Virus record (IMG/VR): IMGVR_UViG_3300034062_005626
Direction: 5' to 3' (one strand)
DNA from: a virus
Taxonomy: Duplodnaviria; Caudoviricetes
DNA length: 64,000 nucleotides
Shown here in pieces: positions 32,079 through 51,749 of the stretch. Below the pieces are notes generated by a model, which saw nothing but the letters and a program-made list of their open reading frames with translations, did not search any database and had not been told where the DNA came from. Position 1 is the stretch's first letter. Each line of letters begins with the position of its first letter. The translations under genes and the position numbers were made by a program.

Positions 32079-32714
32079 ATGTCATCAGCAGAAGAATTAA
32101 TGCAAAGATTGGCCGTGTCCAAAAAAATTATGGACAGACAGAGCACAATAAAAAGAGGTGAAATGCCACAAAATATTAATGCAGCACCAATGTTAGAGAG
32201 TTTTAATACTCCTCAAGCAACATATAACTTACCTCAAGAATTTTTGTCTGAAAGCCCATCGACAAGTCAAAAATCAAATTATGACCCAACAAAACCGATT
32301 GAAGAATCAAAAATTTTAAATTCAAAATTACCAGATGAAATTAAAAAATTAATGATTGAAAGACCTATAGTACAACCTAATACTATGTCAAGTGCGTCTA
32401 TATCTGATGATATAATCGAGGGGGCACAAAGGTTAATGAAAATGGAGAATAAAAACTCACAACCATCCGAATCATTACCAAAATCAAACACCAAAACAAC
32501 AACTCAAAACACACAATCACAATTCAACATGAATGAAATGAGAACAATGATTAGAGATGTTGTAAGAGATGTTGTAAGAGATGTTATTAGAGAAGAATTA
32601 CAAGATGCGGGTGTCATTAGTGAATCATCTGAAGATGCTAACGAATCAATCCAATTTAAAGTTGGTAAGCACATATTTTTAGGTAGAGTTACAAAAATTC
32701 AAAAGGTAAAATAA
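32079..32714 (+). CDS. Hypothetical protein, low complexity
   Basis: 211 aa; contains an RDVV repeat. Confidence 0.5.
   Translation: MSSAEELMQRLAVSKKIMDRQSTIKRGEMPQNINAAPMLESFNTPQATYNLPQEFLSESPSTSQKSNYDPTKPIEESKILNSKLPDEIKKLMIERPIVQPNTMSSASISDDIIEGAQRLMKMENKNSQPSESLPKSNTKTTTQNTQSQFNMNEMRTMIRDVVRDVVRDVIREELQDAGVISESSEDANESIQFKVGKHIFLGRVTKIQKVK
32553..32588 (+). repeat. 12-bp tandem repeat x3 (AGAGATGTTGTA) encoding RDVV-RDVV-RDVI
   Basis: Read directly from the sequence. Confidence 0.85.
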
Positions 32715-32737
32715 CTTTAAACAAAATCAAAAAATGC

Positions 32738-32768
32738 AATCCACCTATTTTAGGTGGATTTTTTATTT
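32738..32768 (+). terminator. Intrinsic terminator
   Basis: AATCCACCTA-TTT-TAGGTGGATT followed by a T run. Confidence 0.8.
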
Positions 32769-32805
32769 TATTACCTTTTGATAGGTCGGGACTATTTATC
32801 ATATT

Positions 32806-33753
32806 ATGGGGAAAAAAATTCAATTAGACGAAGAAGAAGTAGTCAAACAATATCTTAATGGTAAAAGTAGTTCAATTGTTGCGACAGAATTTAAAGTCTC
32901 CAAACCAAAAATACTCAGTATTTTAAAAAAACACAACGTAATAAGAAAAAAAGACAGATGTAAAAGTTTGAATTATAAATTAATCAACGAGTATTACGTT
33001 GTTGAAAGAATTTGCCCAACATGTAAGGAAATAATTCAAACTAAGTCAAAAAATAAAATTATTGCGTGTAGAAATCACTTTGTTAAAATTGACAAAAATT
33101 GTGATTGTAAAAATTGTTCATTAAAAAAACAAATAGGTAAAGGAAATCCGTTTTACGGAAAAAAACACGATGAAAAAACAAAAAATAAAATTTCAAAAAG
33201 TAGAAAGGGGAAGGCAAAAGGTTTTGAAAATGGAATGTCAAATCCTGACAATAAAAAAAGAGCTCACGATAATTTAAAACAAAAGTGGAATAATGGTGAA
33301 ATGGAACATGTTAGAAAAATGTTTTCAGAAACTATGAAAAATACTAGAAGGATGGGAAAAATAAAATCAATTAATAGGTCTAAAAAAGAGAAAGAAATAT
33401 TGGAAGAAATAAAAAATATGGGTTACCAAGTAAAACATTCATTAAAAATTGACACAAAAATATGTGACATATATATACCTAAATTAAATTTAATTATTGA
33501 ATATAATGGAGATTATTGGCATTGTAACCCAAAAAAATACGACGCAAGTTATTATCACCAAGTAAAGAAAAAAACCGCACAAGAATTATGGGAATATGAT
33601 AATAATAAAATTGACTTAATAAAAAGTAATGGTTATTTTTTTGAAGTGGTGTGGGAGTCTGAATTGAAATCAAACCCACAAATAATAAATAACTTAATAA
33701 AAAAACATGAATCAAGAGAGCAATCCAACTCCAGACGTTCGCAAAAAAATTAG
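32806..33753 (+). mobile_element. Free-standing homing endonuclease (HTH, Cys cluster, NUMOD3, DUF559/Vsr-like nuclease)
   Basis: NUMOD3-like GKGNPFYGKKHDEKTKNKISKSRKG; C-terminal CDIYIPKLNLIIEYNGDYWH...VVWESE; has its own TATTTAT motif at 32793. Confidence 0.75.
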
Positions 33754-34967
33754 GGTTCTATGCGTCCCTAGCGACCGTACTGGAGTTGGCTGAATTTAAA
33801 GGAAAATTTAGGTCTGTAGACCCCCACGTAATGTTACAAAATAATCACTCAGATGAATTTCACGTAGATATAGATTACGACCCAAAAATTAATGATTATA
33901 ACTATTGGAAACAATATGACATTGTCCATTTCCATAGGTCAATTGGTCAAGATTTTGACCAAGCGAATAAGTTAATTCAAACATTAAATTCTATTGGTGT
34001 AATTACAATTATGGATTTGGACGACTATTGGTTGCCAACTAAAGAACACCCAATCCATCAACTAATCATACAGAATAAAATAAATGAAAAGATAGTTGCA
34101 AACCTAAAAGTGGCCGCACACGTCACAACAACAACATCTTTATTTGCATCAGAAATATCTAAAATTAATAAAAACGTATACGTTCTTCCAAACGCAATTA
34201 ATCCAAAAGAACCTCAATTCAATCATGAAACAAAACCTTCAGATAAACTTCGTTTTGGATGGTTGGGTGGTTCTTCTCACTTACATGATTTAAAATTATT
34301 AAACGGTGTAACAAATAAATTAAAAGATAGTCATGACAAATTTTCATTGTATCTATGTGGTTTCGATACAAGAGGAAGTGTTACTGAAATTAATAAAGAA
34401 ACGGGGGAACAAAAACAAAGGCCGATAAGGCCAGAAGAAACCGTATGGGCACGTTATGAAGAAATTTTTACTGACAATTATAAGTTAGTTTCTCCCCAAC
34501 ATCTTGAATACCTGAAAAAATTTGAGGATTCTGAATATATTATGGAGTCTGAACCTTTTTACAATCGAGTTTGGACAAAACCTGTTACAAGTTACGCTTC
34601 AAATTATAGATTATTTGATGTTTCATTATCACCGATTGTGAATCATATTTTTAACCGAGTTAAGTCACAATTAAAAGTTATTGAAGCAGGTTTTTATAAA
34701 AAAGCAATTATCGCTTCAAATGTTGGACCATATACCATTGATTTAAAACATGCATTAAAAAATGGTCAGTTCTCTGACGGAAACGCACTTTTAGTTGATG
34801 AAGTAAAAAATCATAGTGATTGGGCTAAAAACATGAAAAAATTAATTGATAATCCTAACTTTGCTTATGACTTGGGACAACGATTGTATGAAACGGTGAA
34901 AGACACATATGATTTGAATATGGTCACAAAAAATAGAGCGGAACTTTATAAATCTTTAATAAAATGA
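33707..34967 (+). CDS. GT-B (GT4-like) glycosyltransferase interrupted by a 13-nt insert (segments 33707-33790 and 33804-34967)
   Basis: ATG at 33707 gives MNQESNPTPDVRKKIRVLCVPSDRTGVG-stop; the +1 frame continues KFRSVDPH...MDLDDYW...RFGWLGGSSH...KSQLKVIEAG. Confidence 0.75.
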
Positions 34968-35692
34968 TAAACATACCTATTAACAAAATTTTATTTATCG
35001 ACATTGAAACTGTTGGTATATGTAAGGATTGGCGGACTTGTCAAGAAAATCACCCAAAAATTGCTGAACAATTTGTTAAATACTTTGATTGGTTTTTAAA
35101 GAGATTTCCTGAAGATGATGTTGAGACAAATGGTCTTGAAGAAGAACTTCAAAAAATGAATGATGTTTATTCTTCAAGAGCGGCACTTGTTCCGGAGTTT
35201 GCTAAAATTGTTTGCGTATCAATGGCATTTGTTTTAGAAAACGGTGAAGTAAAAAAACAAACTTTTAAAAATGACAGCGAAGAGGATTTATTGTTGGAAG
35301 TTAGAAATTTATTAGACCGTTGTCACAAATTAGATTTTTATTTGTGTGGTCATAATTTAAAAAACTTTGACATCCCTATGTTGGCAAAACGTATGATTAT
35401 TAACAATATTATGCCATCAAAAATACTCCCGTCATACGACACTAAACCGTGGGAAGTAAAAGCAATTGACACAAAAGAAATTTGGCAATACGGTTCGTAT
35501 AGTTCAATTGGTTCTTTAGATTTAATGTGTTCTTGTTTAGATATTCCAACACCAAAAGATGGTGAAATAAATGGGGGTATGGTTCATCAGGCATATTGGA
35601 ATCAGAACAGACTTGATGAAATTGCAAAATATTGCGAAAAAGACGTTGATGTTTTGATTGAATCAATAAAAAAATTAAAAAGTTTAAAATAA
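34964..35692 (+). CDS. Stand-alone 3'-5' exonuclease (PolB exonuclease-like, DEDD)
   Basis: LFIDIETV, LVPEFAKIVCVS, GHNLKNFDIP, YCEKDV. Confidence 0.8.
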   Translation: MINIPINKILFIDIETVGICKDWRTCQENHPKIAEQFVKYFDWFLKRFPEDDVETNGLEEELQKMNDVYSSRAALVPEFAKIVCVSMAFVLENGEVKKQTFKNDSEEDLLLEVRNLLDRCHKLDFYLCGHNLKNFDIPMLAKRMIINNIMPSKILPSYDTKPWEVKAIDTKEIWQYGSYSSIGSLDLMCSCLDIPTPKDGEINGGMVHQAYWNQNRLDEIAKYCEKDVDVLIESIKKLKSLK

Positions 35693-36294
35693 TGTTTGAA
35701 AATATAAAAGATTTAAAAAATAGCATGAAAGCTTTAAAAGAGCTTCAATCTCAGTTTGGTAATGTTGACATGACAAACCCTGAAAGTATGTTGAAATCCA
35801 TGGGACTTAATGTTGATGAAATCAATCAACATTTTGAAGGTCAATTTACATCAGAAGTTAATTTAAATTTTGTAAATAATAGTGAAAATCAAAATCCTGA
35901 ATACGCATATAAAGGTGATTCGGGATTTGATTTAAGAGCTTCGGAAGAAAAATGGATTTTTCCAAACTCAAGAGTTTTAATACCTACAGGTTTAAAATTT
36001 GACATTCCTGATGGTTATGAAATACAAGTAAGGTCTAAAAGTGGATTAGCCTTAAATCAAGGATTATTTGTTTTAAATTCACCTGGCACGGTTGATAGTG
36101 GATACTTAGGTGAAATACAAGTTATTTTATTTAACACAACAACAGAAAAAGTTAAAATAGAAAAGGGTCAAAAAATTGCACAAGCGGTTCTTTGTCCTGT
36201 TGTTAATGGCAAATGGGTTAATTTAACGCAAATTTCAAATTTAGGCTCAAAAGACCGAAATGATAATGGATTTGGTTCAACAGGTTTAGTATGA
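35692..36294 (+). CDS. dut: dUTPase with N-terminal extension
   Basis: Motifs SGFDL, RSKSGLA, NSPGTVDSGYLGEI, AQAVL, RNDNGFGSTG. Confidence 0.92.
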   Translation: MFENIKDLKNSMKALKELQSQFGNVDMTNPESMLKSMGLNVDEINQHFEGQFTSEVNLNFVNNSENQNPEYAYKGDSGFDLRASEEKWIFPNSRVLIPTGLKFDIPDGYEIQVRSKSGLALNQGLFVLNSPGTVDSGYLGEIQVILFNTTTEKVKIEKGQKIAQAVLCPVVNGKWVNLTQISNLGSKDRNDNGFGSTGLV

Positions 36295-37931
36295 TTACAG
36301 TAGGATTTTCAACAAGAAAAATAGATGACAATTTTGTCTCGATGTTAAAAAAAACATCAGGAGTAAGTAAATTGGAAATAATACCAATCGAAAACAATGG
36401 TGTATATTCTCTTAGTGAAGCTTACAATAAAATTTTAAATGACTCCACTAATGACATTGTTGTATTGATGCATGACGACATTTATTTTGACAGTAAAAAT
36501 TGGGCGTCAAAAGTTTTAAATTATTTTAAAAGAAATTCTGACTACGGCATTCTTGGAGTTGCAGGTTCAACATCATTACCTTCTTCTGGTAAATGGTGGG
36601 AAGATTTTTCAAAACTTAAAGGAATTGTTAATCATGAACATGAAGGAAAAAAATGGGAGTCAAAATATTCACCAAGCAAAGGTAATCAGTTAGATGACGT
36701 ATTGTTAGTAGATGGGTTATTTATAGCAATTAATAAAAAAAATATTAAACACAACTTTAACGAAGAAGTTAAAGGGTTTCACTTTTACGATGTAGATTTT
36801 TCTTTTAGAAATTATTTAGAAGATGTTAAAATAGGTGTTATGTATGATGTTAGAGTCACACATAAATCGATTGGTATGACTAATGAACAATGGGAAAAAA
36901 ATAGAGAGGAATTTGCAGAAAAATATAAAGATGTTTTACCCGTTAAAATAAAAAGAAATCTTACAATCGATTCACCTTTAAAGGTATTATTATCTTGTTT
37001 ATTTTTTAAAACTTTTACAGGTTCAGAAATGTATGTTTATGAATTAGCAAGAGGATTAAAAAAATTAAATTGTGATGTTACGGTACTATCAGATATTAAT
37101 GGGCCTTTATCTCAATTAGCAAAACAACAAGGAATCAAAGTTGTTTCATTTCAAGATGCTCCTGGTTACAAAATGGGAGATGGAAAGTGGGGATTTAATA
37201 CACCACAAGGGTTTCAACCGACACAACCAAATGTAATGTATAAAATTGGTGATGTTAATTATGATATTATACATACCCAACATACTCCAGTTTCAAATCA
37301 AATGTGTCAGATGTATCCAAACATCGATAAAATATCAACAATACATTCTGAAGTCATAGAATTAGAAAATCCAATTATTAACGATTCAATTAAAAAATAT
37401 ATTTGCATTCGTCCTGAGATACAAAACCATATTGTCGAAAAATTTAATATTGATAAAAATAATACTGAAGTAATTTATAATCCAATCGACACAAAAAGAT
37501 TCAATTCAAACAATATTAAAGATGATAATTATGTTTTGTTTGTTGGTACAATTGATTATTTAAGAGAAAATACAATAAGAGATTTAGTAACATACTCCTC
37601 TGAAATTAATAAAGAATTATGGTTAGTTGGTGAAAACAAATCAAATTACTTGGATGATTTATTAAAAAATCCACACGTAAAACATTTTAACTCAACAAGT
37701 AAAGTTGAACAGTATGTTAAAAACTGTTCTGAAACTGCGGGTATTCTTTTGGGAAGAACGACTATTGAAGGTTGGATGTGTAATAAATCTGGGTGGATTT
37801 ACAATGTTGAAAGTAGTGGTTATATTTTAGATAAAAAATTACATACCCCGCCGACAGATGTTAGTAAATTCGACTCAATTGAAGTGGCAAAAAAAATAAA
37901 AGAAGAATATATTAAAGTTTTAAATGATTAA
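36291..37931 (+). CDS. Bifunctional glycosyltransferase (GT2-like N-terminal and GT4-like C-terminal)
   Basis: SLSEAYNKIL...VLMHDDIYF...GFHFYDVDF (GT-A); FTGSEMYVYELARGL...IYNPID (GT-B). Confidence 0.75.
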   Translation: MITVGFSTRKIDDNFVSMLKKTSGVSKLEIIPIENNGVYSLSEAYNKILNDSTNDIVVLMHDDIYFDSKNWASKVLNYFKRNSDYGILGVAGSTSLPSSGKWWEDFSKLKGIVNHEHEGKKWESKYSPSKGNQLDDVLLVDGLFIAINKKNIKHNFNEEVKGFHFYDVDFSFRNYLEDVKIGVMYDVRVTHKSIGMTNEQWEKNREEFAEKYKDVLPVKIKRNLTIDSPLKVLLSCLFFKTFTGSEMYVYELARGLKKLNCDVTVLSDINGPLSQLAKQQGIKVVSFQDAPGYKMGDGKWGFNTPQGFQPTQPNVMYKIGDVNYDIIHTQHTPVSNQMCQMYPNIDKISTIHSEVIELENPIINDSIKKYICIRPEIQNHIVEKFNIDKNNTEVIYNPIDTKRFNSNNIKDDNYVLFVGTIDYLRENTIRDLVTYSSEINKELWLVGENKSNYLDDLLKNPHVKHFNSTSKVEQYVKNCSETAGILLGRTTIEGWMCNKSGWIYNVESSGYILDKKLHTPPTDVSKFDSIEVAKKIKEEYIKVLND

Positions 37932-38661
37932 AGTTGTAAGTTGTTTTTGGAATGTTGAAAACTACATTGAAAAATGTATTAATTCGGTTAAATCTCAAAC
38001 TTATCGGGACTTTAAAATGTATTTAATTGATGATATGTCTAATGACAATACAAATCAAATCATAGAAAAATTAATAGAGGGTGATGAAAGATTTGTTCAT
38101 ATCAAAAACACTGAAAAAAAGTTCAAATTAAAAAATTTAGATGACTTATTGATGGATGAATCATTAATTGATGATGAAGATATTATTGTTGAGTTGGATG
38201 GTGATGATTGGTTTTATAATGAATTAGTTTTACAAAAAGTTTTTGATAGATATTCTAAAAACAAAAATCTTTGGATTACTAACGGTAGTTTTATATATTC
38301 TGATGGAAGAATGGGGTTTTCGGCAAAGGTGAATCCTAACACAATAAGACGTGACTTATTTGTTTTTTCCCATTTAAGAACTTGGAAAGCCCATTTATGG
38401 AGAAGCATAGATGAAGAAATGTTTTTAGATGAAAATAAAAATTATTTTAAATCAGGTGCCGACGTTGCGTACTCATTTCCTATGGTTGAAATGTCAGGTG
38501 AAAGTCATTATGAATTTATACCCGACATACTATTAGTTTATAATGAAGAAAACCCATATAATGACCACAAACAAGGTAGTGCTAGTGGTTCTAATCTTGA
38601 ACAGATAAAAGTATCAAACATGGTTAGAAATAAACAAAAATTAAATAAGTTAGTTAAATGA
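37924..38661 (+). CDS. GT2-family glycosyltransferase
   Basis: YIEKCINSVKSQT...IDDMSND...ELDGDDW. Confidence 0.85.
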   Translation: MIKVVSCFWNVENYIEKCINSVKSQTYRDFKMYLIDDMSNDNTNQIIEKLIEGDERFVHIKNTEKKFKLKNLDDLLMDESLIDDEDIIVELDGDDWFYNELVLQKVFDRYSKNKNLWITNGSFIYSDGRMGFSAKVNPNTIRRDLFVFSHLRTWKAHLWRSIDEEMFLDENKNYFKSGADVAYSFPMVEMSGESHYEFIPDILLVYNEENPYNDHKQGSASGSNLEQIKVSNMVRNKQKLNKLVK

Positions 38662-39470
38662 ATAATTTAATCTCGTGTAATTTAATGGGTGGTTTAGGTA
38701 ATCAATTATTTCAAGCGGCTCACGCATTGGCACAAGGAATAAAACACAATAGAGAAGTAGTTTTTGTACCTAAATCATGGACACCAATGCAAGGTAGACA
38801 AACTTCAAACTATATTAATAACGTTTTTAGAAATTTAAAATTTGTTGAGTCTATTGATGGATTTGAAAAAGTCGTTGAAGGTCCTTGGGAATATTCTGAA
38901 GTAAATCCAAAAACTAATAGTACAGTCTTTGAAGGGTATTTCCAAAGTAGTAAAAACTTTTTGGGGTATGATGAACAAATTAGAAATATTTTTTTTCCGA
39001 CTGAAGACTTTATAAATAATATGTATGATAAATATCCGCAATTAAAACAAGATAATACTTTATCCATACACACACGTAGGGGGGATTGTTTTTTTAATTT
39101 AGATATTCACCCTATTGCAAACGAAAAATATATTGAAAAATCGTTAAATGTTGTTGGGGAATACAAACATGTTTTTATTTTTGGAGATGATAAAGAATGG
39201 GTAAAAAATAACATTAAATTAAAAAATTCTACGTTTATCGAAAACCTTGAGGATTATGAAGAAATGTGGTTAATGTCTCTTTGTAATCACAACATAATAG
39301 TAAACTCAACTTTTTCTTGGTGGTCATCGTTTTTAAATAAAAACCCAAATAAAAAAATATTAGCACCTTCAATTTGGTTTGGTCCAAGAGGTCCTAAAAA
39401 TTACAAAGACATATACGAAGATTATTGGAAAATTATTGATGTGTCTTATAAAAATGGTTTTTTAGAATAA
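38658..39470 (+). CDS. GT11 alpha-1,2-fucosyltransferase-like
   Basis: GGLGNQLFQ, GYFQS, SIHTRRGD, LMSLCNHNIIVNSTFSWWSSFL. Confidence 0.85.
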   Translation: MNNLISCNLMGGLGNQLFQAAHALAQGIKHNREVVFVPKSWTPMQGRQTSNYINNVFRNLKFVESIDGFEKVVEGPWEYSEVNPKTNSTVFEGYFQSSKNFLGYDEQIRNIFFPTEDFINNMYDKYPQLKQDNTLSIHTRRGDCFFNLDIHPIANEKYIEKSLNVVGEYKHVFIFGDDKEWVKNNIKLKNSTFIENLEDYEEMWLMSLCNHNIIVNSTFSWWSSFLNKNPNKKILAPSIWFGPRGPKNYKDIYEDYWKIIDVSYKNGFLE

Positions 39471-39473
39471 CAT

Positions 39474-40235
39474 ATGGAATACTATTACACAAGATATGAC
39501 GGTAATGACGAAGAAGGTTTAGGTTCAATTTTACAGTCACAACTTCACTTATATGCGTATTGTAGGGTCAATAATAAGAAAATGTTTTTCCCTGGTTTAC
39601 AGAACATATCACATTACCAATATGTTGGAGAAGAAAAAGAAATTTTTAATAAAAAACTAAATGATTTTTTTAATATCCCATCAGAAGGGGAAGTTGGGAC
39701 AAACTATATTGAACCATCATATCTATTAAAAAATTGGGGTGAGTCTGAAAATTCTATAAAACAAAAATATATTCCTGAGTTATTTGAAAAAATAAAATAC
39801 ACAGGAATAAATTATTTTGATAAAAATAAAAAAACTTTATCCGTACATATAAGGAATATTAATCCTCAAGATGTTTGTTTTGATTATAACAGGGAATATT
39901 ATTCAGAAAATAAAAAAAATTATTTTATAAATTTAATTACAAACATACATAAGATTCACGGAAAAAATTTAGATGTTCATATTTTTTCTCAAGGTAAAGA
40001 TGAAGATTTTGAAATATTTGAAAAAAAATTTAATGCAAAAACACATTTGAATGGTGATATAGTAACAACATTATATCATTTAATTACAAGTGAAATATTA
40101 GTAACTTCGAATAGTTCTTTTAGTTGGGTTTCTCATCTTTATGGTCAAAATAAATATGTCTATTCACGTAACAATTTTTTTCATTCTTGGTACTCATCAA
40201 CTTTTTTAGTTGACAATTATGGTAATATAATTTAA
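39474..40235 (+). CDS. Fucosyltransferase-like GT-B protein
   Basis: EGLGSILQ, SVHIRN, HIFSQG, LVTSNSSFSW resemble fucosyltransferase motifs I-III. Confidence 0.55.
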   Translation: MEYYYTRYDGNDEEGLGSILQSQLHLYAYCRVNNKKMFFPGLQNISHYQYVGEEKEIFNKKLNDFFNIPSEGEVGTNYIEPSYLLKNWGESENSIKQKYIPELFEKIKYTGINYFDKNKKTLSVHIRNINPQDVCFDYNREYYSENKKNYFINLITNIHKIHGKNLDVHIFSQGKDEDFEIFEKKFNAKTHLNGDIVTTLYHLITSEILVTSNSSFSWVSHLYGQNKYVYSRNNFFHSWYSSTFLVDNYGNII

Positions 40236-40244
40236 GTTTATAAC

Positions 40245-41324
40245 ATGAAAAATAATATATCAATTATAGGTGTCGGTAAATTAGGTTTATGTTTATCGTT
40301 AAATTTAGAAAGAAAAGGATTTAATATAGTAGGGGTTGACGTTTCTGAGTCATATGTTAGTTCATTAAATAATAAAAGTTTTAAAAGTACAGAACCATAC
40401 GTTAATGAATTTTTACAAAGTTCAAAAAATATTTTTTTTACAACTTCTCTTGAATTAGCATTAAAAAATGATGTAATATTTGTTGTAGTAAAAACCCCAT
40501 CAACACCAGAATGGAAATACGACCACACCCAAATAGATAATATAGTTGATGAGTTAATTAAAATCGGAAAACAAAATACCCGTAAAGATTTAATTATAAA
40601 TTCAACAACTTTTCCAGGATACTGTGACACAATCCAAAAAAGATTGTCAGATTTAAATTATTTTGTGTCTTATAATCCAGAATTTATTGCTCAAGGTAGT
40701 ATTATTATGGACCAATTAAATTGTGATAGTGTGTTAATAGGTGAGTCAGACAAAACGGCAGGAGATACAATTGAACACATATATAAAGTAATGTGTGATT
40801 CTAACCCAATAATAAATCGCATGTCAAGAACAGAATCTGAATTAACAAAATTGTCAGTTAACTGTTTTCTCACAACTAAAATAAGTTTTGCAAACATGAT
40901 AGGTGACATATCTGAAAGGATGAATTGTAATCCTAATGTTATTTTGAATGCCGTTGGTTCAGATAGTAGAATTGGAAATAAATACCTTAAACCTGGATTT
41001 GGTTTTGGAGGACCTTGTTTCCCGAGAGATAATCGCGCATTATCTAAATGTGCAGAAGAAGTTGGTATTGACGCAGTAATTTCAAAATCTACGGACATAA
41101 TGAATGAAAAACATTTAGAATATCAAATTCAAAATTTTGTTAAAAACAATCCCGATATGACTAAAAAAGTTGTAATACCATACGTTACATATAAAAAAGA
41201 AAGTACCTTAATTGAAGAGTCCCAACAACTTAAATTTGCTTTAAGTTTAAAAAATATGGGATATAATGTTGTAGTATCTGACGACAGAGAAGAAGTAATC
41301 GAACAAATAAAAAATATATTATAA
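40245..41324 (+). CDS. ugd: UDP-glucose/GDP-mannose 6-dehydrogenase family
   Basis: GVGKLG Rossmann motif, STTFPG, YNPEFIAQG, SELTKLSVN, catalytic GFGGPCFPRD. Confidence 0.8.
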   Translation: MKNNISIIGVGKLGLCLSLNLERKGFNIVGVDVSESYVSSLNNKSFKSTEPYVNEFLQSSKNIFFTTSLELALKNDVIFVVVKTPSTPEWKYDHTQIDNIVDELIKIGKQNTRKDLIINSTTFPGYCDTIQKRLSDLNYFVSYNPEFIAQGSIIMDQLNCDSVLIGESDKTAGDTIEHIYKVMCDSNPIINRMSRTESELTKLSVNCFLTTKISFANMIGDISERMNCNPNVILNAVGSDSRIGNKYLKPGFGFGGPCFPRDNRALSKCAEEVGIDAVISKSTDIMNEKHLEYQIQNFVKNNPDMTKKVVIPYVTYKKESTLIEESQQLKFALSLKNMGYNVVVSDDREEVIEQIKNIL

Positions 41325-41325
41325 T

Positions 41326-41988
41326 ATGTCAGCATTTAATTCAGACCCCCAAGTTGAAAATGAAATTTTAAAATTAAAAAAATTATTCAATGTAGAAACG
41401 GTTATAGAAACAGGTACTTATATTGGAGAAACCACTAAATTTTTCTGTGAAAATTTTAAAGATGTTTACGGTATCGAAATAAGTGAAAATTATTACACAA
41501 AAACAAAAGATACGTGTATCGAAAAAAATAATTTAAATCTTATTTTAAACTCATCTACAAATTTTTTAAATGACAACCTTTTAGAAATTGGTAAAGATAA
41601 AGAAGTAATTTTATTTTATTTAGATGCTCACTGGGATAATTATTGGCCATTAAAAGATGAAATTGACGCAATATCAAAAAATTATTTTAATAGGGCGATA
41701 ATTGTTATTGACGACTTTTATGTCCCAAATAGAGATTTTCAATTTGATACATATAATAACAATGTATGTAACTATGATTACATTAAAAATAATATTGAAA
41801 ATTGTTATGATGGATTTCAATATTATTTTTTGAACAAAACTCAAAGAAATTTACCAATAAGAAATGGAAATATAGGTGGGGTTGGTAAAATTTTTATTAT
41901 ACCAAACTTATTAATTAAAAAAAATAACATAAAAAACGAAACTATTTTTTTTGAAGAGAGAGGTAGTTTTTATTCAACAACCGAGTAA
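41326..41988 (+). CDS. Class I SAM-dependent methyltransferase
   Basis: VIETGTYIGET, YGIE, FYLDAH, IVIDD. Confidence 0.7.
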   Translation: MSAFNSDPQVENEILKLKKLFNVETVIETGTYIGETTKFFCENFKDVYGIEISENYYTKTKDTCIEKNNLNLILNSSTNFLNDNLLEIGKDKEVILFYLDAHWDNYWPLKDEIDAISKNYFNRAIIVIDDFYVPNRDFQFDTYNNNVCNYDYIKNNIENCYDGFQYYFLNKTQRNLPIRNGNIGGVGKIFIIPNLLIKKNNIKNETIFFEERGSFYSTTE

Positions 41989-41989
41989 T

Positions 41990-42715
41990 ATGATAGACGA
42001 AAAAACAAATTTTGGATTAAAAAAATATTCTGAAAAAATATATTCTCAATACTATGAGGATGGTATGATTAGAGAAGCGTTAGAATCTGTAAATAGCATA
42101 AACAAAGGGTTTTTTGTTGATGTCGGGTCTTGGGACGGTGTTTATTTAAGTAACACATATAGACTAATTAGGGACTTTGGGTTTAAAGGAATATGTATTG
42201 AGTCAAACGAGGAAAAACATAATCAGGCGGTTGAAAACTTCCAAAATATGGGGATTACCTGTATTAATACATTGCTATCGACAGAAAAGGATAATAGTTT
42301 AGATTATATTTTAAATAAAAATAATTGTCCTAAAGATTTTGATTTTTTATCAATAGACATTGACGGGATTGATTGGTGGGTATGGCATTCATTAAAGGAT
42401 TTTTCCCCTAAAGTAGTCATAATGGAGTATAACGCTAACCACAATAATTGTTCAATCGTTAGATATGACAAAAACTATGTGCACACAAATAATATAAATT
42501 ATTATGGTGCAACCCCACCAGCACTTTATTTGTTAGGTGAATATAAAAATTATGATTTAGTTGGGATGAACAGATTAAATATGATTTTTATTAGAAAGGA
42601 TTTAAACACATTACCTGTACTTAAATCCGAAGATATACCTTGGTATTCTCCTTGGGCTAATGGTTGCGATACGCCAATGTTGGACATAGATTACGATTAT
42701 ATAAAAAATTTATGA
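41990..42715 (+). CDS. FkbM-like methyltransferase
   Basis: Likely start at 41990; YSQYYEDG, FFVDVGSWDG..LSNT, FLSIDIDGIDW. Confidence 0.75.
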   Translation: MIDEKTNFGLKKYSEKIYSQYYEDGMIREALESVNSINKGFFVDVGSWDGVYLSNTYRLIRDFGFKGICIESNEEKHNQAVENFQNMGITCINTLLSTEKDNSLDYILNKNNCPKDFDFLSIDIDGIDWWVWHSLKDFSPKVVIMEYNANHNNCSIVRYDKNYVHTNNINYYGATPPALYLLGEYKNYDLVGMNRLNMIFIRKDLNTLPVLKSEDIPWYSPWANGCDTPMLDIDYDYIKNL

Positions 42716-43800
42716 TAATAAAAAATATAAAAAGTTTATCTGAGTTAGATACATATCTAACATCTTTACAAACCAAAGAACTTAACTTAATAAATTATGT
42801 TTGGTTAGAATATGGGTTTTATCCAATTTTATTTAATGAATTGTTTTTACCATTCATAAATCAAACTAAAGGAAAAAAAATAGGTCTATGTTTTCCAGGT
42901 CACGAAGTTTTTTATGAACCTCATGTTGATTATCTTATTGTTTTAGAAAATTTTATAGACACCTCTAAAGCATACAAGGATAATAATGAGACTGACCTGT
43001 TATTAAATAATTTTTTAAAGTTTAAAGATAGGGGAGTTGCCTTTTGGTTTACTGTTAGAAATTTTGATGAAGACCAATATTGGTCCGTAATAAGCAAATA
43101 TGAATTTAGAAACATAATTTTCCCAATAGGAAAAGAGAAGGCGTGGGAAAATGACCTATTTATTCTTAAACCAGGGTACTGTTATGGTTCCGGTAAAGAC
43201 GGGGAATGGAATTTAGGTATGAATAAATGGTATTCAACAAATACTTTAGGGTGGGAGATTGAAACATGGAATCCGACATTTAATAAAAAATCTCACTTAA
43301 ACATAAAAAAATACAATACCTTTTTTGTTAAGAACTCATGGAAAAGTAGAGATTATTCATCCAACAATATAAATGATTTTTTAGTTGGTAAAAACGCAAC
43401 TGACGGTAAAAAAGGATATGGATTTGTTGACCATTCATTTTATAACGATGTGATAAATTACCATATAAATAATAAACTAGAAATTTTGGTGATAAATGAC
43501 CTTTGTTCTTTTCCTAAAATTGAAAGTGAATATGTCCATTATTTAGATATGGTCTCTTTTTTTGACACCAAATTGTTTTTGACTGTAATAGATAATTCTG
43601 AAAACTTTATTAGTACCTCAACATCACCTATAGATTTATCAACTTACTACTGTAATACAAATTTGGTTTTATTAGACGATAAACAAAATAAAATAAACTT
43701 TGTAAAAAAAATTCAAGACATTAAAAAAAAACAATGTATGTCGTTTAACGTTGGGGTTGATGACAATAATAAATTATATAACTTTTTAAAATGGAATTAG
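42712..43800 (+). CDS. Hypothetical protein in the glycan cluster
   Basis: Likely start MIIKNIKS at 42712; very AT-rich; no clear family motif. Confidence 0.45.
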   Translation: MIIKNIKSLSELDTYLTSLQTKELNLINYVWLEYGFYPILFNELFLPFINQTKGKKIGLCFPGHEVFYEPHVDYLIVLENFIDTSKAYKDNNETDLLLNNFLKFKDRGVAFWFTVRNFDEDQYWSVISKYEFRNIIFPIGKEKAWENDLFILKPGYCYGSGKDGEWNLGMNKWYSTNTLGWEIETWNPTFNKKSHLNIKKYNTFFVKNSWKSRDYSSNNINDFLVGKNATDGKKGYGFVDHSFYNDVINYHINNKLEILVINDLCSFPKIESEYVHYLDMVSFFDTKLFLTVIDNSENFISTSTSPIDLSTYYCNTNLVLLDDKQNKINFVKKIQDIKKKQCMSFNVGVDDNNKLYNFLKWN

Positions 43801-44531
43801 AAAAAAAAATATCTTCTTGGATTACTAACTATTTAGACAACACAAACTTAAGTAGTTTAATTGTTGGTGTTAGTGGCGGTATAGATTCGGCTTTGACCTC
43901 TACGTTATGTGCTATGTCAAATAAAAAAACAATTGTGGTTAGTATACCAATATTTCAAAATGAATCTCAACTAAATTTAGCAAAAAAACATATTGAATGG
44001 TTGAAAAGTAATTTTAATAATGTAATTTCAATAGAAATTGATATGTCTGATGTTTTTAGTATGTTTGAGAAAAAATTTGACTCTTATCACAATCTTTCTT
44101 CAGCTAATTCAAAATCAAGATTACGTATGGTTACATTATATCACATATCATCATTAAATAATGGAATAGTTGTGGGTACAGGAAACAAAGTTGAGGATTT
44201 TGGTATTGGTTTTTTTACTAAATATGGGGACGGAGGAGTTGATATATCACCAATAGCAGATTTAACAAAAACTGAAGTAAGGGAATTAGCATCAAATTTA
44301 GGAATTATAGAAGAAATAATTCAAGCGGAGCCCACCGATGGTCTTTGGGACGACGATAGAACCGATGAACAACAAATTGGGGCAACTTATTCAGAGTTGG
44401 AATGGGCAATGTCTTTTGATGGAAATTTGAGCGACCTCACCGAAAAAGAAATTGATGTACTTCAAATATATAAAAAATTCAATAAAATGAACGCCCATAA
44501 AATGACTACTATACCAATTTTTAAAAAATGA
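43791..44531 (+). CDS. nadE: NH3-dependent NAD+ synthetase
   Basis: GVSGGIDSALT (PP-loop), NSKSRLRM, GTGNKVE, GFFTKYGDGGVDISPIADLTKTEV, PTDGLW...DEQQIG. Confidence 0.9.
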   Translation: MELEKKISSWITNYLDNTNLSSLIVGVSGGIDSALTSTLCAMSNKKTIVVSIPIFQNESQLNLAKKHIEWLKSNFNNVISIEIDMSDVFSMFEKKFDSYHNLSSANSKSRLRMVTLYHISSLNNGIVVGTGNKVEDFGIGFFTKYGDGGVDISPIADLTKTEVRELASNLGIIEEIIQAEPTDGLWDDDRTDEQQIGATYSELEWAMSFDGNLSDLTEKEIDVLQIYKKFNKMNAHKMTTIPIFKK

Positions 44532-45244
44532 ATACATCACAAAAAGAATTGATAAGAGGTAAAGAAGTCCTTTTAGATAATAGAAGTTTTGAATATGGGG
44601 GTTCTTGGGGTAAAGATGGTACTAACGACCCTCTTTTTCTTGAAGAGTGTATGAAAATTATTGAAGAAAAAAATCATAAAGTAATTTTTGATATTGGTTC
44701 TAATACTGGCCAATTTATTTTTTTTTACCTTTTTAAATCCGATATTGAAACGTATTGTTTTGAACCATTAAAACCTGTATACGACACACTAAATAGTAAT
44801 ATTTTGTTAAATGATATAAAAAATGCCAACACATATAACTTCGCTTTGTGTAATGAGGATGGTGAAAGTTATATTTACAGGCCAGAAAATATGATTGCTT
44901 GTGGTATGTCTACCATGGGAGAAAAAGCATTAAGATTTAAAAACGAATTTGGGGTTGTAAAAGAAAAAATACAATGTAAAAAATTAGATACTTTTGTATT
45001 GGAAAAAAAATTAAAAAAAATTGACTTTATAAAAATAGATACAGAAGGATTTGAATATTTTGTTTTACTTGGTGGTTTTAATACTTTACAAAAACACAAA
45101 CCAGACTTAGTAATTGAGTATCAAAAACTTAACATGTCTCAGTGTGGTGTTGAAGAAGATAAACTTAAAACCCTATTAGAAAGTATTGGGTATAATTATT
45201 TTAAATTTTTAAGCGGAGAAGATTTATATTGTAGTTATGTATAA
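44528..45244 (+). CDS. FkbM-family methyltransferase
   Basis: IFDIGSNTG, YCFEP, LDTF, FIKIDTEGFE. Confidence 0.85.
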   Translation: MNTSQKELIRGKEVLLDNRSFEYGGSWGKDGTNDPLFLEECMKIIEEKNHKVIFDIGSNTGQFIFFYLFKSDIETYCFEPLKPVYDTLNSNILLNDIKNANTYNFALCNEDGESYIYRPENMIACGMSTMGEKALRFKNEFGVVKEKIQCKKLDTFVLEKKLKKIDFIKIDTEGFEYFVLLGGFNTLQKHKPDLVIEYQKLNMSQCGVEEDKLKTLLESIGYNYFKFLSGEDLYCSYV

Positions 45245-46142
45245 TTTAATTATTTCAAATGCGGCGGGAACTTTCAGTACAATATTGAAGTACATTTCTT
45301 GGATGTGCGTACAAGAAAAAAATAGAGATACAATAAACTTATTTTTTGATTTTAGAAATAAAACAAAGGTTTCAGGTAACACTTTATTAAATTATGGTAC
45401 TTCAGATTTAAATTTAATTAATTTTTCACAAACAAGTGAAAACATTTTTGATATGTTTTTTAATATTAAAAATGTTGGTTTATACCCATATAACTCTAAA
45501 TATGTTGAGCAATACCCTTATGAAATTAAAAACATTATAAAAAATTATCCAGAACATTTAATTAAATATGAGGGTAGGGGTTGTGATGTAAAACAATATT
45601 TTGACGATTCAGAAATTAAAAAAATTAGGTCTGAATTTAATAAACAGTGGGAAAGGTTAGATTTATCACCAAACTTAAAAAAAAGAATCAATGTAGAAGT
45701 CGACCCATTTTTTAGAAATAATCATAGAATTTTATGTGCTATGATTAGGTATTCAGACCATTATGTTGGTGATTTTTCGTATGAAAAAATTTTTGAAGAG
45801 ATTGATGATAAAATGAAAAATTTTGATAAATTATTGTTAATAACACAATTATTACCTGTTGTGGAAATTCTTAAAGAAAAATATGGAAATAATTTAATTT
45901 ATTTTGAGAATAGACATAGAGTTAATGATTATAAAACTGATTGGGATGGGGGTAGGAATATAAGTATGAGTGATGAATCATTTATACGTGAAACCGAAGA
46001 TTGTATAATAGATGTCATAGCGGCTAGTAAAAGCCATTTTGTTTTAGGAGGTGCTAGTAATATGTTTTTAGGAGCACTTTCTATTAATAAAGATTTAAAT
46101 TATAAAATTTTCGACGTATTAATAAACAATATAGGTAGATAA
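45237..46142 (+). CDS. Putative O-fucosyltransferase/NodZ-like GT-B protein
   Basis: AGTFSTIL, AMIRYSD, IIDVIAASKSHFVLGGASN; cluster context. Confidence 0.45.
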   Translation: MYNLIISNAAGTFSTILKYISWMCVQEKNRDTINLFFDFRNKTKVSGNTLLNYGTSDLNLINFSQTSENIFDMFFNIKNVGLYPYNSKYVEQYPYEIKNIIKNYPEHLIKYEGRGCDVKQYFDDSEIKKIRSEFNKQWERLDLSPNLKKRINVEVDPFFRNNHRILCAMIRYSDHYVGDFSYEKIFEEIDDKMKNFDKLLLITQLLPVVEILKEKYGNNLIYFENRHRVNDYKTDWDGGRNISMSDESFIRETEDCIIDVIAASKSHFVLGGASNMFLGALSINKDLNYKIFDVLINNIGR

Positions 46143-46146
46143 AAAA

Positions 46147-47154
46147 ATGAAAAAAATTGTAGTTTTAGGTGGCGGTGGATTCATAGGTGGACATTTAGCC
46201 AAAAGTTTAAAAGAAAAAGGTAATCATGTTAGAATATGTGATATAAAAAAACACGAATATTTCAAACACGAAGAAATATGTAATGAATTTGTTTTAGGTG
46301 ACTTAAGAGACCCTAACGTTGTCCAATTAGTTATTGAAGAAGGAGTTGATGAAGTTTATCAATTGGCTGCAGATATGGGTGGTGCGGGATATATTTTTAC
46401 AGGAGAAAATGATGCGAATGTTATGCATAATTCGGCATTAATTAATTTAAATGTAGTTCATGAGTGTGTTAAAAAACAAGTTAAAAAAGTTTTTTATTCT
46501 TCTTCAGCTTGTATGTACCCCGAACACAACCAATTAGACCCATTAAACCCAAATTGCGAAGAATCTTCAGCGTATCCCGCAAATCCAGATTCCGAATATG
46601 GGTGGGAAAAATTATTTAGTGAGAGGTTATATTTAGCATTCAATAGAAACTATGGGTTAGATGTTAGAATCGCCAGATTTCACAATATTTTCGGTCCTTT
46701 TGGTACGTGGGTTGGGGGTAAAGAAAAGGCTCCCGCGGCTATGTGTAGAAAGGCCTGTGAATCAAAAAATGGTGACCAAATTGAGGTATGGGGTGACGGT
46801 CAACAAACACGTTCATTTCTTTACATTGATGAGTGTTTAGAGGCGGTTTTTAAACTTATGGAAAGTAATTTTACAAACCCGGTTAATATTGGTTCTGAAG
46901 AAAAAGTTACAATAAATGAATTAGCACAAATGGCAATTAACATCTCAGGTAAGGATATAAAAATTAAAAATATTTTTGGTGATGAATTTATTAAAAAATA
47001 TGGATTCAAATGTCCTATAGGTGTTAGAGGTAGGACATCCGACAACAGTCTTTATGAAAAAACCGTTGGGTGGAAGGTTTCTAAACCACTTAAAGATGGT
47101 TTAGAAAAAACCTTACACTGGATTGATAATCAAATCAAAATTAAAAATGTATAA
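46147..47154 (+). CDS. GDP-mannose 3',5'-epimerase-like extended SDR
   Basis: GGGGFIG, QLAADMGG, YSSSACMYP, YGWEK, RFHNIFGPFGTWVGGKEKAPAAMCRK closely follow GME-family motifs. Confidence 0.75.
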   Translation: MKKIVVLGGGGFIGGHLAKSLKEKGNHVRICDIKKHEYFKHEEICNEFVLGDLRDPNVVQLVIEEGVDEVYQLAADMGGAGYIFTGENDANVMHNSALINLNVVHECVKKQVKKVFYSSSACMYPEHNQLDPLNPNCEESSAYPANPDSEYGWEKLFSERLYLAFNRNYGLDVRIARFHNIFGPFGTWVGGKEKAPAAMCRKACESKNGDQIEVWGDGQQTRSFLYIDECLEAVFKLMESNFTNPVNIGSEEKVTINELAQMAINISGKDIKIKNIFGDEFIKKYGFKCPIGVRGRTSDNSLYEKTVGWKVSKPLKDGLEKTLHWIDNQIKIKNV

Positions 47155-48130
47155 AAAAAAAGTTTTAATAACAGGTATAAATGGTCAAGATGGTTCATAT
47201 TTGACTGAATTTTTATTAGATAAAAGTTATGAAGTGTGGGGGATGGTAAAAAGAAATTCAGTACCAGAAACACAATCATCAAGAATTGAACACTTGAGGG
47301 AAAATAAAATTATAAATTTGGAGTACGGTGATTTAACAGATATGGCTTCTTTGGTAAATATTATTCAAAAAGTCCAACCTGACGAAATTTATAACTTAGC
47401 CGCTCAATCACATGTTCGAGTTAGTTTTGACCAACCAATATACACAACAAACACAACTGGTTTAGGGACTTTAAATTTATTAGAAGCGGTCAGAATGGTG
47501 TCACCACATTCAAAAATTTATCAAGCATCATCTTCTGAAATGTTTGGTAATATGGTAGACGAAGACGGGTTCCAAAGAGAAACGACCCCTATGAACCCCG
47601 TTTCACCTTATGGTTGTGCAAAAGTATTTTCTTATAATATATGTAGAAATTATAGAAATTCATATAACATGAAAATATGGAACGGCATACTTTTTAATCA
47701 CGAATCACCAAGACGAGGAACTAATTTTGTAACTAATAAAGTGGTAAAGGGTGCCGTAAGAATTAAACTTGGTTTACAAAATAAATTAAGTTTAGGTAAT
47801 TTACAAGCCAGTAGAGATTGGGGGCATGCTAAAGATTATGTAAGGGCTATGTGGTTAATGCTACAAACAGAAACACCAGACGATTATGTATGCGCCACAG
47901 GAGTATCACATTCTGTAAAAGACTTGTGCGAATACACTTTTTCAAAACTTAATTTAAATTACAAAGATTATGTTGTGGTAGATGAGAAAAATTTTAGACC
48001 GGAAGAATTACATAATTTAAAAGGAGATTCATCCAAAATGAAGTCAAAAATAAATTGGGAACCTGAATACACATTCGAGTCAATGTTAGATGAAATGATT
48101 CAATACTGGTTAAATTATTATGATAAGTAA
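47147..48130 (+). CDS. gmd: GDP-mannose 4,6-dehydratase
   Basis: Likely start at 47147; LITGINGQDGSYL, YNLAAQSHVRVSF, YQASSSE, SPYGCAK, LFNHESPRRG..FVT.K, RDWGHAKDY. Confidence 0.95.
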   Translation: MYKKKVLITGINGQDGSYLTEFLLDKSYEVWGMVKRNSVPETQSSRIEHLRENKIINLEYGDLTDMASLVNIIQKVQPDEIYNLAAQSHVRVSFDQPIYTTNTTGLGTLNLLEAVRMVSPHSKIYQASSSEMFGNMVDEDGFQRETTPMNPVSPYGCAKVFSYNICRNYRNSYNMKIWNGILFNHESPRRGTNFVTNKVVKGAVRIKLGLQNKLSLGNLQASRDWGHAKDYVRAMWLMLQTETPDDYVCATGVSHSVKDLCEYTFSKLNLNYKDYVVVDEKNFRPEELHNLKGDSSKMKSKINWEPEYTFESMLDEMIQYWLNYYDK

Positions 48131-49031
48131 GATATTAGTTACAGGTGGTAATGGTTTAGTGGGTTCTGAGTTTGTTGGTGAAAAATATTATAAGCCAACG
48201 TCCAAAGAATATAATCTCAAAAATACGGATGACGCGAATCGTTTAATGTTGAAAAGGTTTGAAAGTGTAATTCACACCGCAGGTAGAGTGGGAGGATTGG
48301 GTAGTAATATAAATCACAAGGGAGAATTTTTTTATGAAAATATTATGATAAATACAAATGTGATTGAATCGGCAAGAATTAGTGGTGTTAAAAATTTAGT
48401 ATCTTTTTTGTCAACATGTATTTTTCCTGATAGTACGGAATACCCATTAACTGAAAAAAAAATACACATGGGTCCACCTCATTTTTCAAATGACGCTTAC
48501 GCTTACGCAAAACGTATGGTTGATGTCCAAATACGTGCATATAAAGAACAATACGGTTTAAATTATAAATCAGTTATACCTACTAATATTTATGGCCCAA
48601 ACGATAATTATGACATCAAAAATGGTCACGTAATTCCTTCACTAATTCATAAATGTTATTTAGCAAGAGAACATAAAACACCACTAACTATTTGGGGTAG
48701 TGGGAATCCACTAAGAGAGTTTATTTTTAGTAGAGATGTTGCTAAATTAACCGAGTGGGTTCTTTTTAACTATGACGAAAACGAACCAATAATACTTTCT
48801 ACCTCGGACGAGATTTCAATAAAAGAAGTTGTGGGTATAATAGTTGAAATTATGAATTTTAAAGGTGAAGTTAAGTTTGATACAACAAAACCTGACGGAC
48901 AATATAGAAAACCTTCAGACAACTCCAAAATTAAAAGTTATTTACCTGACTTTAATTTTACAAACCTTTTTGATGGATTAAAAGAAACTATTGAATATTT
49001 TGAAAAATACTATAATGTTGTAAGAAAATAA
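48120..49031 (+). CDS. fcl: GDP-L-fucose synthase
   Basis: GGNGLVGS, AGRVGG, STCIFP, YAYAK, PTNIYGPND, HVIPSLI, WGSGNPLREF, KPDGQYRK. Confidence 0.92.
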   Translation: MISKILVTGGNGLVGSEFVGEKYYKPTSKEYNLKNTDDANRLMLKRFESVIHTAGRVGGLGSNINHKGEFFYENIMINTNVIESARISGVKNLVSFLSTCIFPDSTEYPLTEKKIHMGPPHFSNDAYAYAKRMVDVQIRAYKEQYGLNYKSVIPTNIYGPNDNYDIKNGHVIPSLIHKCYLAREHKTPLTIWGSGNPLREFIFSRDVAKLTEWVLFNYDENEPIILSTSDEISIKEVVGIIVEIMNFKGEVKFDTTKPDGQYRKPSDNSKIKSYLPDFNFTNLFDGLKETIEYFEKYYNVVRK

Positions 49032-49035
49032 TCAA

Positions 49036-50398: not shown

Positions 50399-50676
50399 AA
50401 TTTTTAGGTGAAAGATATTATATCGACGTACAGGAGATAGAAAATAAAATTGCAATTGCCAACCCCACTTTAGAATCAACTGAAGTTGATGGTCAAATTG
50501 AACCACACATAAGTGTTTCAAAATGGGAAGTATATAAAAATTTAGTAGATGTTATATTATCCGAAAGAGAAGAGCTTGATGAAAATTTAGGTATACATAG
50601 TGCCAAAAATTTATCAATCCCTTTTAAATTCGCATTCAATACTTTACTAATAAACAACATAATAAAAAAGTTATAA
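50392..50676 (+). CDS. Hypothetical protein
   Basis: Likely start MLEFLGERYYID at 50392. Confidence 0.5.
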   Translation: MLEFLGERYYIDVQEIENKIAIANPTLESTEVDGQIEPHISVSKWEVYKNLVDVILSEREELDENLGIHSAKNLSIPFKFAFNTLLINNIIKKL

Positions 50677-50680
50677 TAAA

Positions 50681-51745: not shown

Positions 51746-51749
51746 TATT

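Follow-up and report, generated by a model that had tools for sequence, protein, structure and literature searches.

The closest described system is the coding gap of T4 gene 60 with its MobA element, reportedly documented by Huang in 1988 and by Bonocora in 2011. Another set of translational bypass elements, the byps of Magnusiomyces capitatus mitochondria, is said by Lang et al. (in 2014) to consist of G+C-rich hairpins of 27-55 nt in many mitochondrial genes. Moreover, Weiss, Dunn, Atkins and Gesteland reportedly observed in 1987 a low-level hopping of tRNA over a stop codon in E. coli reporters, for example at CUU-UAG-CUA. A different consequence of homing-endonuclease insertion is represented by the MobE-type 'genes in pieces' of Aeh1 nrdA (Friedrich 2007). 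According to a 2022 survey, MobA/gene-60 cassettes are confined to topoisomerase genes, and the phage cassette was called unique (Manning & Atkins, bioRxiv 10.1101/2022.08.31.505936). In the full-text literature, bypassing papers were found for gene 60, mitochondria and mechanism only, none of them tied to a glycosyltransferase. The present analysis concerns a glycosyltransferase (GT) gene in IMG/VR virus record IMGVR_UViG_3300034062_005626 (Duplodnaviria; Caudoviricetes), of which the whole stretch of 64,000 nt, hereafter the window, was analysed. The genome belongs to an uncultured myophage from lakes and encodes a tail sheath, a major head protein and a family-B DNA polymerase. The GT gene is interrupted near its 5' end by a 13-nt insert that contains a stop codon, beside a homing-endonuclease-like gene. 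Judged from sequence comparison, it is probably expressed by programmed translational bypassing on a mobile homing-endonuclease cassette, which would work like T4 gene 60/MobA while being non-homologous to it. A short bypass element within a mobA/gene 60-like homing-endonuclease cassette had been proposed in an earlier sequence-only reading, and comparative evidence supports it: cassette-free homologues are contiguous, the codons flanking the gap covary over 16 configurations, an N-terminal extension accompanies the gap, and the nuclease decays with the GT frames staying open.

The likeness to T4 gene 60/MobA extends to several features. One protein would be obtained from two open reading frames (ORFs) by way of a Gly take-off codon, an immediate stop and a Gly landing codon; the insert carries an N-terminal extension together with a recoded homologous region; and a homing-endonuclease cassette has the gap at its far end and keeps it while the endonuclease decays. 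Additionally, two relatives (L013, L099) share with gene 60 a stem-loop, a Shine-Dalgarno-like element and, ahead of the landing codon, an A/U-rich tract. In contrast, the target here is a GT-B glycosyltransferase and not a topoisomerase, the nuclease is NUMOD3/Vsr-like whereas MobA is of HNH type, an unsplit gene carries the gap at its 5' end, and there is no sequence homology. Moreover, the gaps are mostly 2-12 nt long without stem-loop or internal Shine-Dalgarno sequence, the take-off codons are GGY or AGY and never GGA, Ser/Ser pairs occur, and the nascent chain has 26-28 residues at take-off. As had been supposed, the element would be independent and much shorter; homology to MobA/gene 60 fails by gene, nuclease and sequence. 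Compared to the byps of M. capitatus, which have neither an endonuclease partner nor a Shine-Dalgarno sequence, the present gaps occupy a single site in one phage gene family. The 6-nt types (GGY-stop-GGN) resemble the E. coli hopping reporters in that a peptidyl-tRNA would re-pair with a synonymous codon 6 nt on, but those reporters are engineered or adventitious and work at about 1%, whereas the gaps are inherited, conserved, and tied to a dedicated extension and a gene under purifying selection. In Aeh1 nrdA a homing-endonuclease insertion likewise interrupts a conserved gene and adds terminal extensions; there, however, two large pieces are translated separately and assembled, whereas here the first piece would have 28 residues and the second has no start codon at the junction.

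In the window, a 28-codon ORF (ORF1), MNQESNPTPDVRKKIRVLCVPSDRTGVG, opens at ATG 33707 within the 3' end of the endonuclease-like ORF 32806-33753, and its last codon, GGC 33788-90, is followed by TGA 33791-93. The GT frame restarts in the +1 frame at KFRSVDPH (AAA 33804), after GGA 33801-03, and runs to 34967 (ORF2); the positions given by the sequence-only reading for ORF1, the stop and the frame switch were all correct. Thousands of metagenomic GT homologues exist. Intact ones of 404 aa (e.g. P0001, 100% identical across the aligned region) read MKKIKVLVLASDRTGVGKFRSVDPH, and intact homologues of 403-405 aa in general carry M(K/S)KIKVLVLxSD(R/K)TGVGKFRSVDPH without interruption, so that the contiguous ...DRTGVGKFRS... 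predicted earlier for cassette-free homologues was indeed found. In a DNA alignment with L001, an empty-site allele that encodes the same protein from the junction onward (100% identity), exactly 13 nt, GGCTGAATTTAAA, preceded the native GGA. Apart from the extension, ORF1 and ORF2 together give exactly the sequence of the intact homologue.

The usual worry for a lone frameshifting indel is an assembly or sequencing error, or the removal of the 13 nt from the RNA by splicing or editing; no further point speaks for this explanation, which is barely conceivable here. All sampled words of 33500-34100 are present in 18 freshwater/lake DNA runs from 18 studies, and two DNA contigs match 32600-34697 with zero differences. 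The same 13 nt stand in independent contigs from JGI, ENA, Logan and IMG/VR (L003-L008, L015, L017), and the same allele is found in the nearest record, G001. Sequencing runs and many independently assembled lake metagenomes thus agree on the insert, which excludes an assembly error. As for the RNA, a 162-nt RNA-library contig (33665-33826) keeps the gap unchanged, which is a weak test, and the 5-6-nt inserts of relatives are too short for introns; nothing appears to point to a removal of the gap at the RNA level. Among deposited phage genomes, blastn of the region gave no match and tblastn only distant GTs at <=35% identity, so no cultured relative is at hand.

The gap of the window belongs to a family of gaps at one codon. 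Alleles were gathered by pattern scans and protein-guided scans, with both the GT and the nuclease as queries, and a uniform script separated 35 distinct gap alleles from 94 intact loci, which represent 64 distinct sequences. The gap alleles fall into 16 take-off/gap/landing configurations, all at the same codon in related uncultured freshwater phages (Table 1). With inserts of 5, 6, 7, 8, 10, 11, 13, 15, 43 and 44 nt, all three frame relations between ORF1 and ORF2 are realized. The untranslated gap itself measures 2-41 nt, the short ones being A/T-rich; a search of IMG/VR with long-gap patterns found none.

Table 1. Take-off, gap and landing configurations at the interrupted GT codon, with example alleles
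Take-off codon	Gap	Landing codon	Insert (nt)	Alleles
GGC	TGAATTTAAA	GGA	13	window
GGC	TGAATTAAAA	GGA	13	L024
GGC	TGAAAAAATTAA	GGA	15	L014
GGT	TAA	GGA	6	L012, L016
GGT	TAA	GGT	6	L038, L047, L120
GGT	TAA	GGC	6	L133
GGC	TGA	GGT	6	L105-L113, L116
GGT	TGA	GGA	6	L122
GGT	TAACTAAA	GGT	11	L080, L082
GGC	TGAATTA	GGT	10	L136
GGT	TCG TAA, stem-loop, A/U tract	GGT	44	L013
GGT	GCG TGA, stem-loop, A/U tract	GGT	43	L099, L100
AGT	TG	AGC	5	L131, L132
AGC	TGAA	AGC	7	L148
AGC	TGACA	AGC	8	L140-L143
AGT	TAA	GGC	6	L137

The site codon is duplicated in every configuration, with one copy on each side of the gap, and the flanking copies agree in their amino acid in 15 of 16 cases (12 Gly/Gly and 3 Ser/Ser), the exception being the Ser/Gly pair of L137. 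The Ser/Ser pairs (AGT/AGC once, AGC/AGC twice) occur exactly in the clades with Ser at the intact site (TGVS-YFRS). If the ribosome hopped from the first of these codons to the second, the native protein would result in all configurations except L137; no single frameshift or readthrough achieves this across them. The first gap codon is TGA in 9/16 and TAA in 5/16, and the two long gaps begin with a rare NCG followed by a stop. A reassigned stop codon was ruled out on the grounds that both TGA and TAA are used and most gaps shift the frame. Take-off codons are exclusively GGC, GGT, AGC and AGT, although, among 82 Gly-site loci, the native codon is GGA or GGG in 40 and GGC in just one. Codon pairs are GGY/GGY or AGY/AGY (10/16), GGY/GGA (5/16) and AGT/GGC (1/16). 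Past the landing codon, the codons for KFRSVDPHV show synonymous differences only among most gap alleles. At the L137 junction, near 2960-2975, AGT (Ser) is followed by TAA and GGC (Gly); the tRNA could land here by U-G pairing with the first base of the codon, or the allele could be defective. Some intact GTs (L031, L055) have Phe (TTT) at the Gly site, alongside ...KFRSGDPH, so the site residue is not invariant in the GT family and may be Gly, Ser or Phe.

These configurations also bear on a +1 frameshift at GGC-UGA, which would read GAA TTT AAA GGA and lengthen the Gly loop by four residues to ...TGVG-EFKG-KFRS.... Both in the window (ORF from TTG 33786) and in L024 the gap contains no stop in the +1 frame, and the stop after a Gly codon with GGAG 2 nt upstream resembles the frameshift site of RF2 (prfB). 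Such a frameshift is nevertheless distinctly improbable: it fails for the in-frame inserts of 6 and 15 nt and for those of 5, 8, 11 and 44 nt, which need other shifts; a move from GGC to GCU allows no re-pairing; and four residues would be added to an otherwise length-invariant, conserved loop. Moreover, gap lengths of close types differ by non-multiples of three, hence the gap is free of triplet constraint.

A second feature that accompanies the gap is the N-terminal extension. ORF1 comprises 26-28 codons including an extension of 9-11 residues (11 in the window) in 35/35 distinct gap alleles, compared with 17-20 codons in intact alleles. The lone allele with the extension and no gap is L101 (218-330), in which the endonuclease 3' end is present and the site reads GTT TCG AAA (Ser); this represents either a loss of the gap or a homing event whose conversion tract ended before it. 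On the nuclease tree, gap-less clades are nested among gap-bearing ones, which indicates that extension and gap switched state together at least 2-3 times. Pro and Arg recur in the extension across the gap types compared, about 16-20 residues before the take-off residue. Bypassing of gene 60 requires a nascent peptide, and by analogy the extension may act as a nascent-peptide signal. Between extension and gap, the 5' end of the GT differs from the empty-site allele at about one quarter of positions, as against 0-1% after landing. The unusually GC-rich codons that had been noticed upstream of the junction are real and form part of this recoded 5' end.

ORF1 and the gap together are the most conserved segment of the locus, with 2-8% divergence, whereas the GT diverges by 7-20% and the stretch just upstream, nuclease remnants included, by 14-32%; the contrast of this island with the upstream region was significant in 7/7 pairs tested. 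Gap-bearing nucleases have diverged to about 40-67% identity with extension and gap retained, so the association between gap and nuclease is old. The ratio of non-synonymous to synonymous substitution (dN/dS) for ORF2 between gap alleles is 0.03-0.16; as the cassette is mobile, such low values are no proof of selection after insertion.

The same observations are relevant to a selfish cassette that simply knocks out the GT, with the gap as a scar or immunity insert and ORF2 as a pseudogene or as a truncated or split protein made by re-initiation at ATG 33831. Such an outcome, which is unlikely, would agree with the horizontal spread of the cassette and its very recent arrival in this lineage (ORF2 is 100% identical to intact L001), with the annotation of a 378-aa protein from ATG 33831 by gene callers, and with two replacements just past landing in L024; furthermore, the identity island around ORF1 and the gap is possibly a recent conversion tract. 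However, none of the 35 gap alleles has a break in ORF1 (84 nt) or in ORF2 (about 1160 nt), whereas the nuclease ORF is broken or absent in 15 of the 32 that could be judged, and the old association described above is also at odds with a knock-out. Several other gap types offer no usable in-frame start after the gap, the first ATG, GTG or TTG lying 20, 88 and 105 codons on in L080, L111 and L116, respectively; for these types, re-initiation and a split protein were rejected. Nor would a knock-out account for the doubling of the Gly or Ser codon, for the stop right behind its first copy, or for the extension that comes with the gap.

The predicted fold of the GT points in the same direction. 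Pfam matches of ORF2 to Glyco_trans_1_4 and Glycos_transf_1 are weak and below cut-offs. An AF2 model of the intact homologue P0001 (pLDDT 78.9) has strand beta-1 at residues 4-9 and a helix at 24-31, and Foldseek retrieved PglA, MshA, BshA and PimA with E values of about 1e-11 to 1e-9 and probability 1.00. From this model, the GT is predicted to be a GT4-like enzyme of GT-B fold with two Rossmann-like domains, including an N-terminal beta-1, a Gly-rich loop and alpha-1, and the gap site is placed in the loop between beta-1 and helix 24-31. A protein started at 33831 would therefore miss a core strand and the Gly loop, and with them the conserved KFRSVDPHV, which further disfavours a knock-out with re-initiation. 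As separate observations on the GT family, a 443-aa homologue from an NCBI source (P0040) has an internal tandem duplication of about 39 residues, in which the NHIFNRVKSQLKVIEAGF... segment occurs twice, and the GT of the Ser-site clades (L131, L133, L140 and L148) has a long additional region fused to its C-terminus, with a frame that leaves the locus after 632-650 codons.

The neighbouring gene is homing-endonuclease-like. In its 315-aa protein, Pfam detects the DNA-binding motif NUMOD3 at 26.4 bits (cut-off 20.4), while REase_MTES_1575 (21.3 versus a cut-off of 38.2) and DUF559 remain below cut-off. PHROG families of homing or HNH endonucleases match with E values of 1e-12 to 1e-8, and a PDB sequence search gave marginal matches only, including the weak one of the I-TevI DNA-binding domain. 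Relatives of the nuclease down to about 37% identity have this GT family immediately downstream with few exceptions, as in almost all of 50 loci examined. Alignment with L001 shows that the cassette replaces a short intergenic region and the first 17 GT codons of the empty-site allele; the two sequences agree as far as the terminator hairpin of the preceding gene, and once more from GGA 33801 on. This hairpin with its T-run (32737-32768), terminator-like and belonging to the upstream gene, is the last sequence common with the empty-site allele and therefore defines the cassette's left edge. In the GT phylogeny, intact L001 comes out as the sister of the window (100% identical past the landing codon), and gap alleles occur at scattered positions beside intact ones; as the cassette is also far less diverged than the GT backgrounds, it has moved between genomes in the manner of a homing element.

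The gap is accompanied by nuclease genes in three states. An identical gap is found with a full-length nuclease (window, L008), with a nuclease lacking its N-terminal 180-200 codons (L004-L007) and with a degenerate remnant of about 170 nt (L003, L017, L024), which indicates that the gap outlives the nuclease. The shortened form arose by a deletion between two ATGGG(G)AAAAA microhomologies (L004:3430-3530 compared with window 32806-33370) and leaves the nuclease-like C-terminal part alone as an ORF of 111-133 aa. A strict co-occurrence of insert and endonuclease, which had been expected earlier, does not hold, as 15 gap alleles have a decayed or no nuclease and 9 intact alleles have one. Protection of the gap allele against the nuclease has been shown for MobA, and by analogy the gap may protect its own allele here. 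Since some nuclease-bearing alleles have no gap, the gap would not be the sole route to nuclease resistance.

With regard to RNA signals, L013 and L099 have a 10-bp G+C-rich stem directly after the stop, with three compensatory or wobble changes between the two (z -1.6 and -2.1) and, in one of them, a GNRA tetraloop. Past the stem follow GGAG or AAGGAGG inside the gap, a 10-nt A/U tract and the landing codon GGT, the same layout as in gene 60 homologues (bioRxiv 10.1101/2022.08.31.505936). The short gaps look like long gaps minus the stem-loop, the tail of type F being GAAATTAAAA and type B TGAAAAAATTAA. In the 10-nt gap of the window, no Shine-Dalgarno-like element of the gene-60 kind, 5-7 nt before landing, is present; instead, GGAG lies 2 nt upstream of take-off. 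GGGG or GGAG occupies this position in 17/18 distinct gap contexts versus 24/46 intact contexts, and this GGRG may help the hop. The RF2 frameshift site has a close-spaced Shine-Dalgarno element, which the upstream GGRG resembles. The 8-bp hairpin that the sequence-only reading had drawn around the stop did not stand up: the minimum-energy fold contains it, but shuffled sequences fold as well as the region itself (z = +0.49), and the pairing is gone in the nearest gap variant, L024, and in other short-gap types.

The features of the locus are compiled in Table 2. In the proposed mechanism, translation from ATG 33707 would yield a 28-residue nascent chain made of the 11-residue extension, beta-1 and the beginning of the Gly-rich loop. 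At GGC 33788-90 the ribosome, carrying peptidyl-tRNA(Gly), would pause because UGA occupies the A site. The anticodon would release, and after a slide of 13 nt across the A/U-rich gap the tRNA would re-pair at GGA 33801-03. Decoding would restart at AAA 33804 and give the native ...DRTGVG-KFRSVDPH... GT-B enzyme with an N-terminal extension. Gap, extension and recoded GT 5' end would constitute the right-hand end of a mobile cassette whose left part, the NUMOD3/Vsr-like homing endonuclease, would invade empty GT alleles in mixed infections. From the comparative evidence, we infer that the hop occurs and is efficient.

Table 2. Coordinates of the features at the interrupted GT locus in the window
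Feature	Position	Strand	Remarks
Whole mobile cassette	32770..33800	+	Endonuclease gene, N-terminal extension, recoded GT 5' end and gap; left edge approximate
Free-standing homing-endonuclease-like gene, 315 aa	32806..33753	+	NUMOD3 motif and C-terminal Vsr/PD-(D/E)XK-like nuclease region
GT start codon and N-terminal extension MNQESNPTPDVR	33707..33742	+	Overlaps last endonuclease codons; candidate nascent-peptide signal
Recoded GT 5' end KKIRVLCVPSDRTGV, GC-rich codons	33743..33787	+	Strand beta-1 and beginning of Gly-rich loop
GGAG, Shine-Dalgarno-like tetramer	33782..33785	+	2 nt 5' of take-off codon; possible stimulator
Take-off codon GGC, Gly28 of ORF1	33788..33790	+	Family take-off set: GGC, GGT, AGC, AGT
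Untranslated gap TGAATTTAAA (putative)	33791..33800	+	Stop TGA 33791-93 first; second zero-frame stop TAA 33797-99
Landing codon GGA, native Gly17 codon of empty-site allele	33801..33803	+	Alignments with L001 and L021
GT ORF2, 387 codons and stop, remainder of GT-B, GT4-like glycosyltransferase	33804..34967	+	Pfam, AF2, Foldseek
8-bp A/U-rich hairpin CTGAATTT / AAATTTAG	33790..33811	+	Probably not a functional element

Several points weigh against bypassing and have to be set beside this evidence. The codons GGC and GGA of the window agree at the first two bases only, as do the pairs of 5/12 Gly configurations, and a tRNA with GCC anticodon would have to re-pair at GGA with a wobble mismatch; L137, with AGT/GGC, presents a further mismatch. 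The caveat on GGC and GGA raised in the sequence-only reading therefore stands for the window, but in relatives both codons of some pairs are readable by a single tRNA (GGT/GGT, GGC/GGT, AGC/AGC). The window contains no tRNA genes, so there is no phage tRNA(Gly) to account for the landing on GGA. Latitude in P-site re-pairing is on record for gene 60 and for the mitochondrial byps. The short gaps have neither a stable stem-loop nor an internal Shine-Dalgarno sequence, and unassisted hops over a stop in E. coli reportedly amounted to about 1% in the work of Weiss et al. from 1987. Furthermore, ORF2 of the window matches an intact allele at 100% identity; its integrity and low dN/dS are therefore due in part to selection that preceded the invasion. 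L024 carries two non-synonymous changes within nine post-landing codons. Related nucleases (285 or about 253 aa) lie at the same place beside an intact GT with neither gap nor extension (L009-L011, L022, L123 and others), which means that the gap is not required for coexistence with the nuclease. The RNA-library contig extends just 26 nt beyond the gap, compared with the 31 nt of the rule applied, and DNA was possibly present in the library.

Beyond bypassing in this one gene, it is reasonably likely that freshwater myophages harbour an old and diversified group of minimal ribosome-hop cassettes (5-15 nt, codon-stop-same codon), which would rely mainly on the nascent peptide and the upstream GGRG and not on a stem-loop, would be derived from gene-60-like gaps of 43-44 nt, and would represent a second, independent union of homing endonuclease and bypassing.

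The surroundings of the GT gene were also inspected. It is followed by a PolB-exonuclease-like protein at 34964-35692, and related loci have a dUTPase at the position of 35692-36294. Further downstream, a run of same-strand ORFs extends over 36291-53305; its first member, 36291-37931, is a Glyco_tranf_2_5 and GT4 fusion, and homologous ORFs in related loci are likewise called glycosyltransferases. The phage seems heavily invested in glycosylation.

For annotation, the finding matters in that gene callers give these GTs as truncated proteins of 378 or 393 aa, and the in-frame Gly-stop-Gly versions resemble pseudogenes. Programmed bypassing has so far been known from a single phage system (T4 gene 60 with its homologues, all in the same topoisomerase gene) and from the byps of yeast mitochondria. 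The GT system would add an unrelated gene, an unrelated nuclease and a different host environment with the same logic as gene 60. Moreover, it offers a natural series of variants with gaps of 2-41 nt, with and without a stem-loop, with Gly and Ser take-offs and with matched and wobble-mismatched landings. Such a series would open to test the minimal signals for a hop, the reach of the nascent peptide alone, and the evolution of these cassettes, which apparently proceeded by shrinkage.

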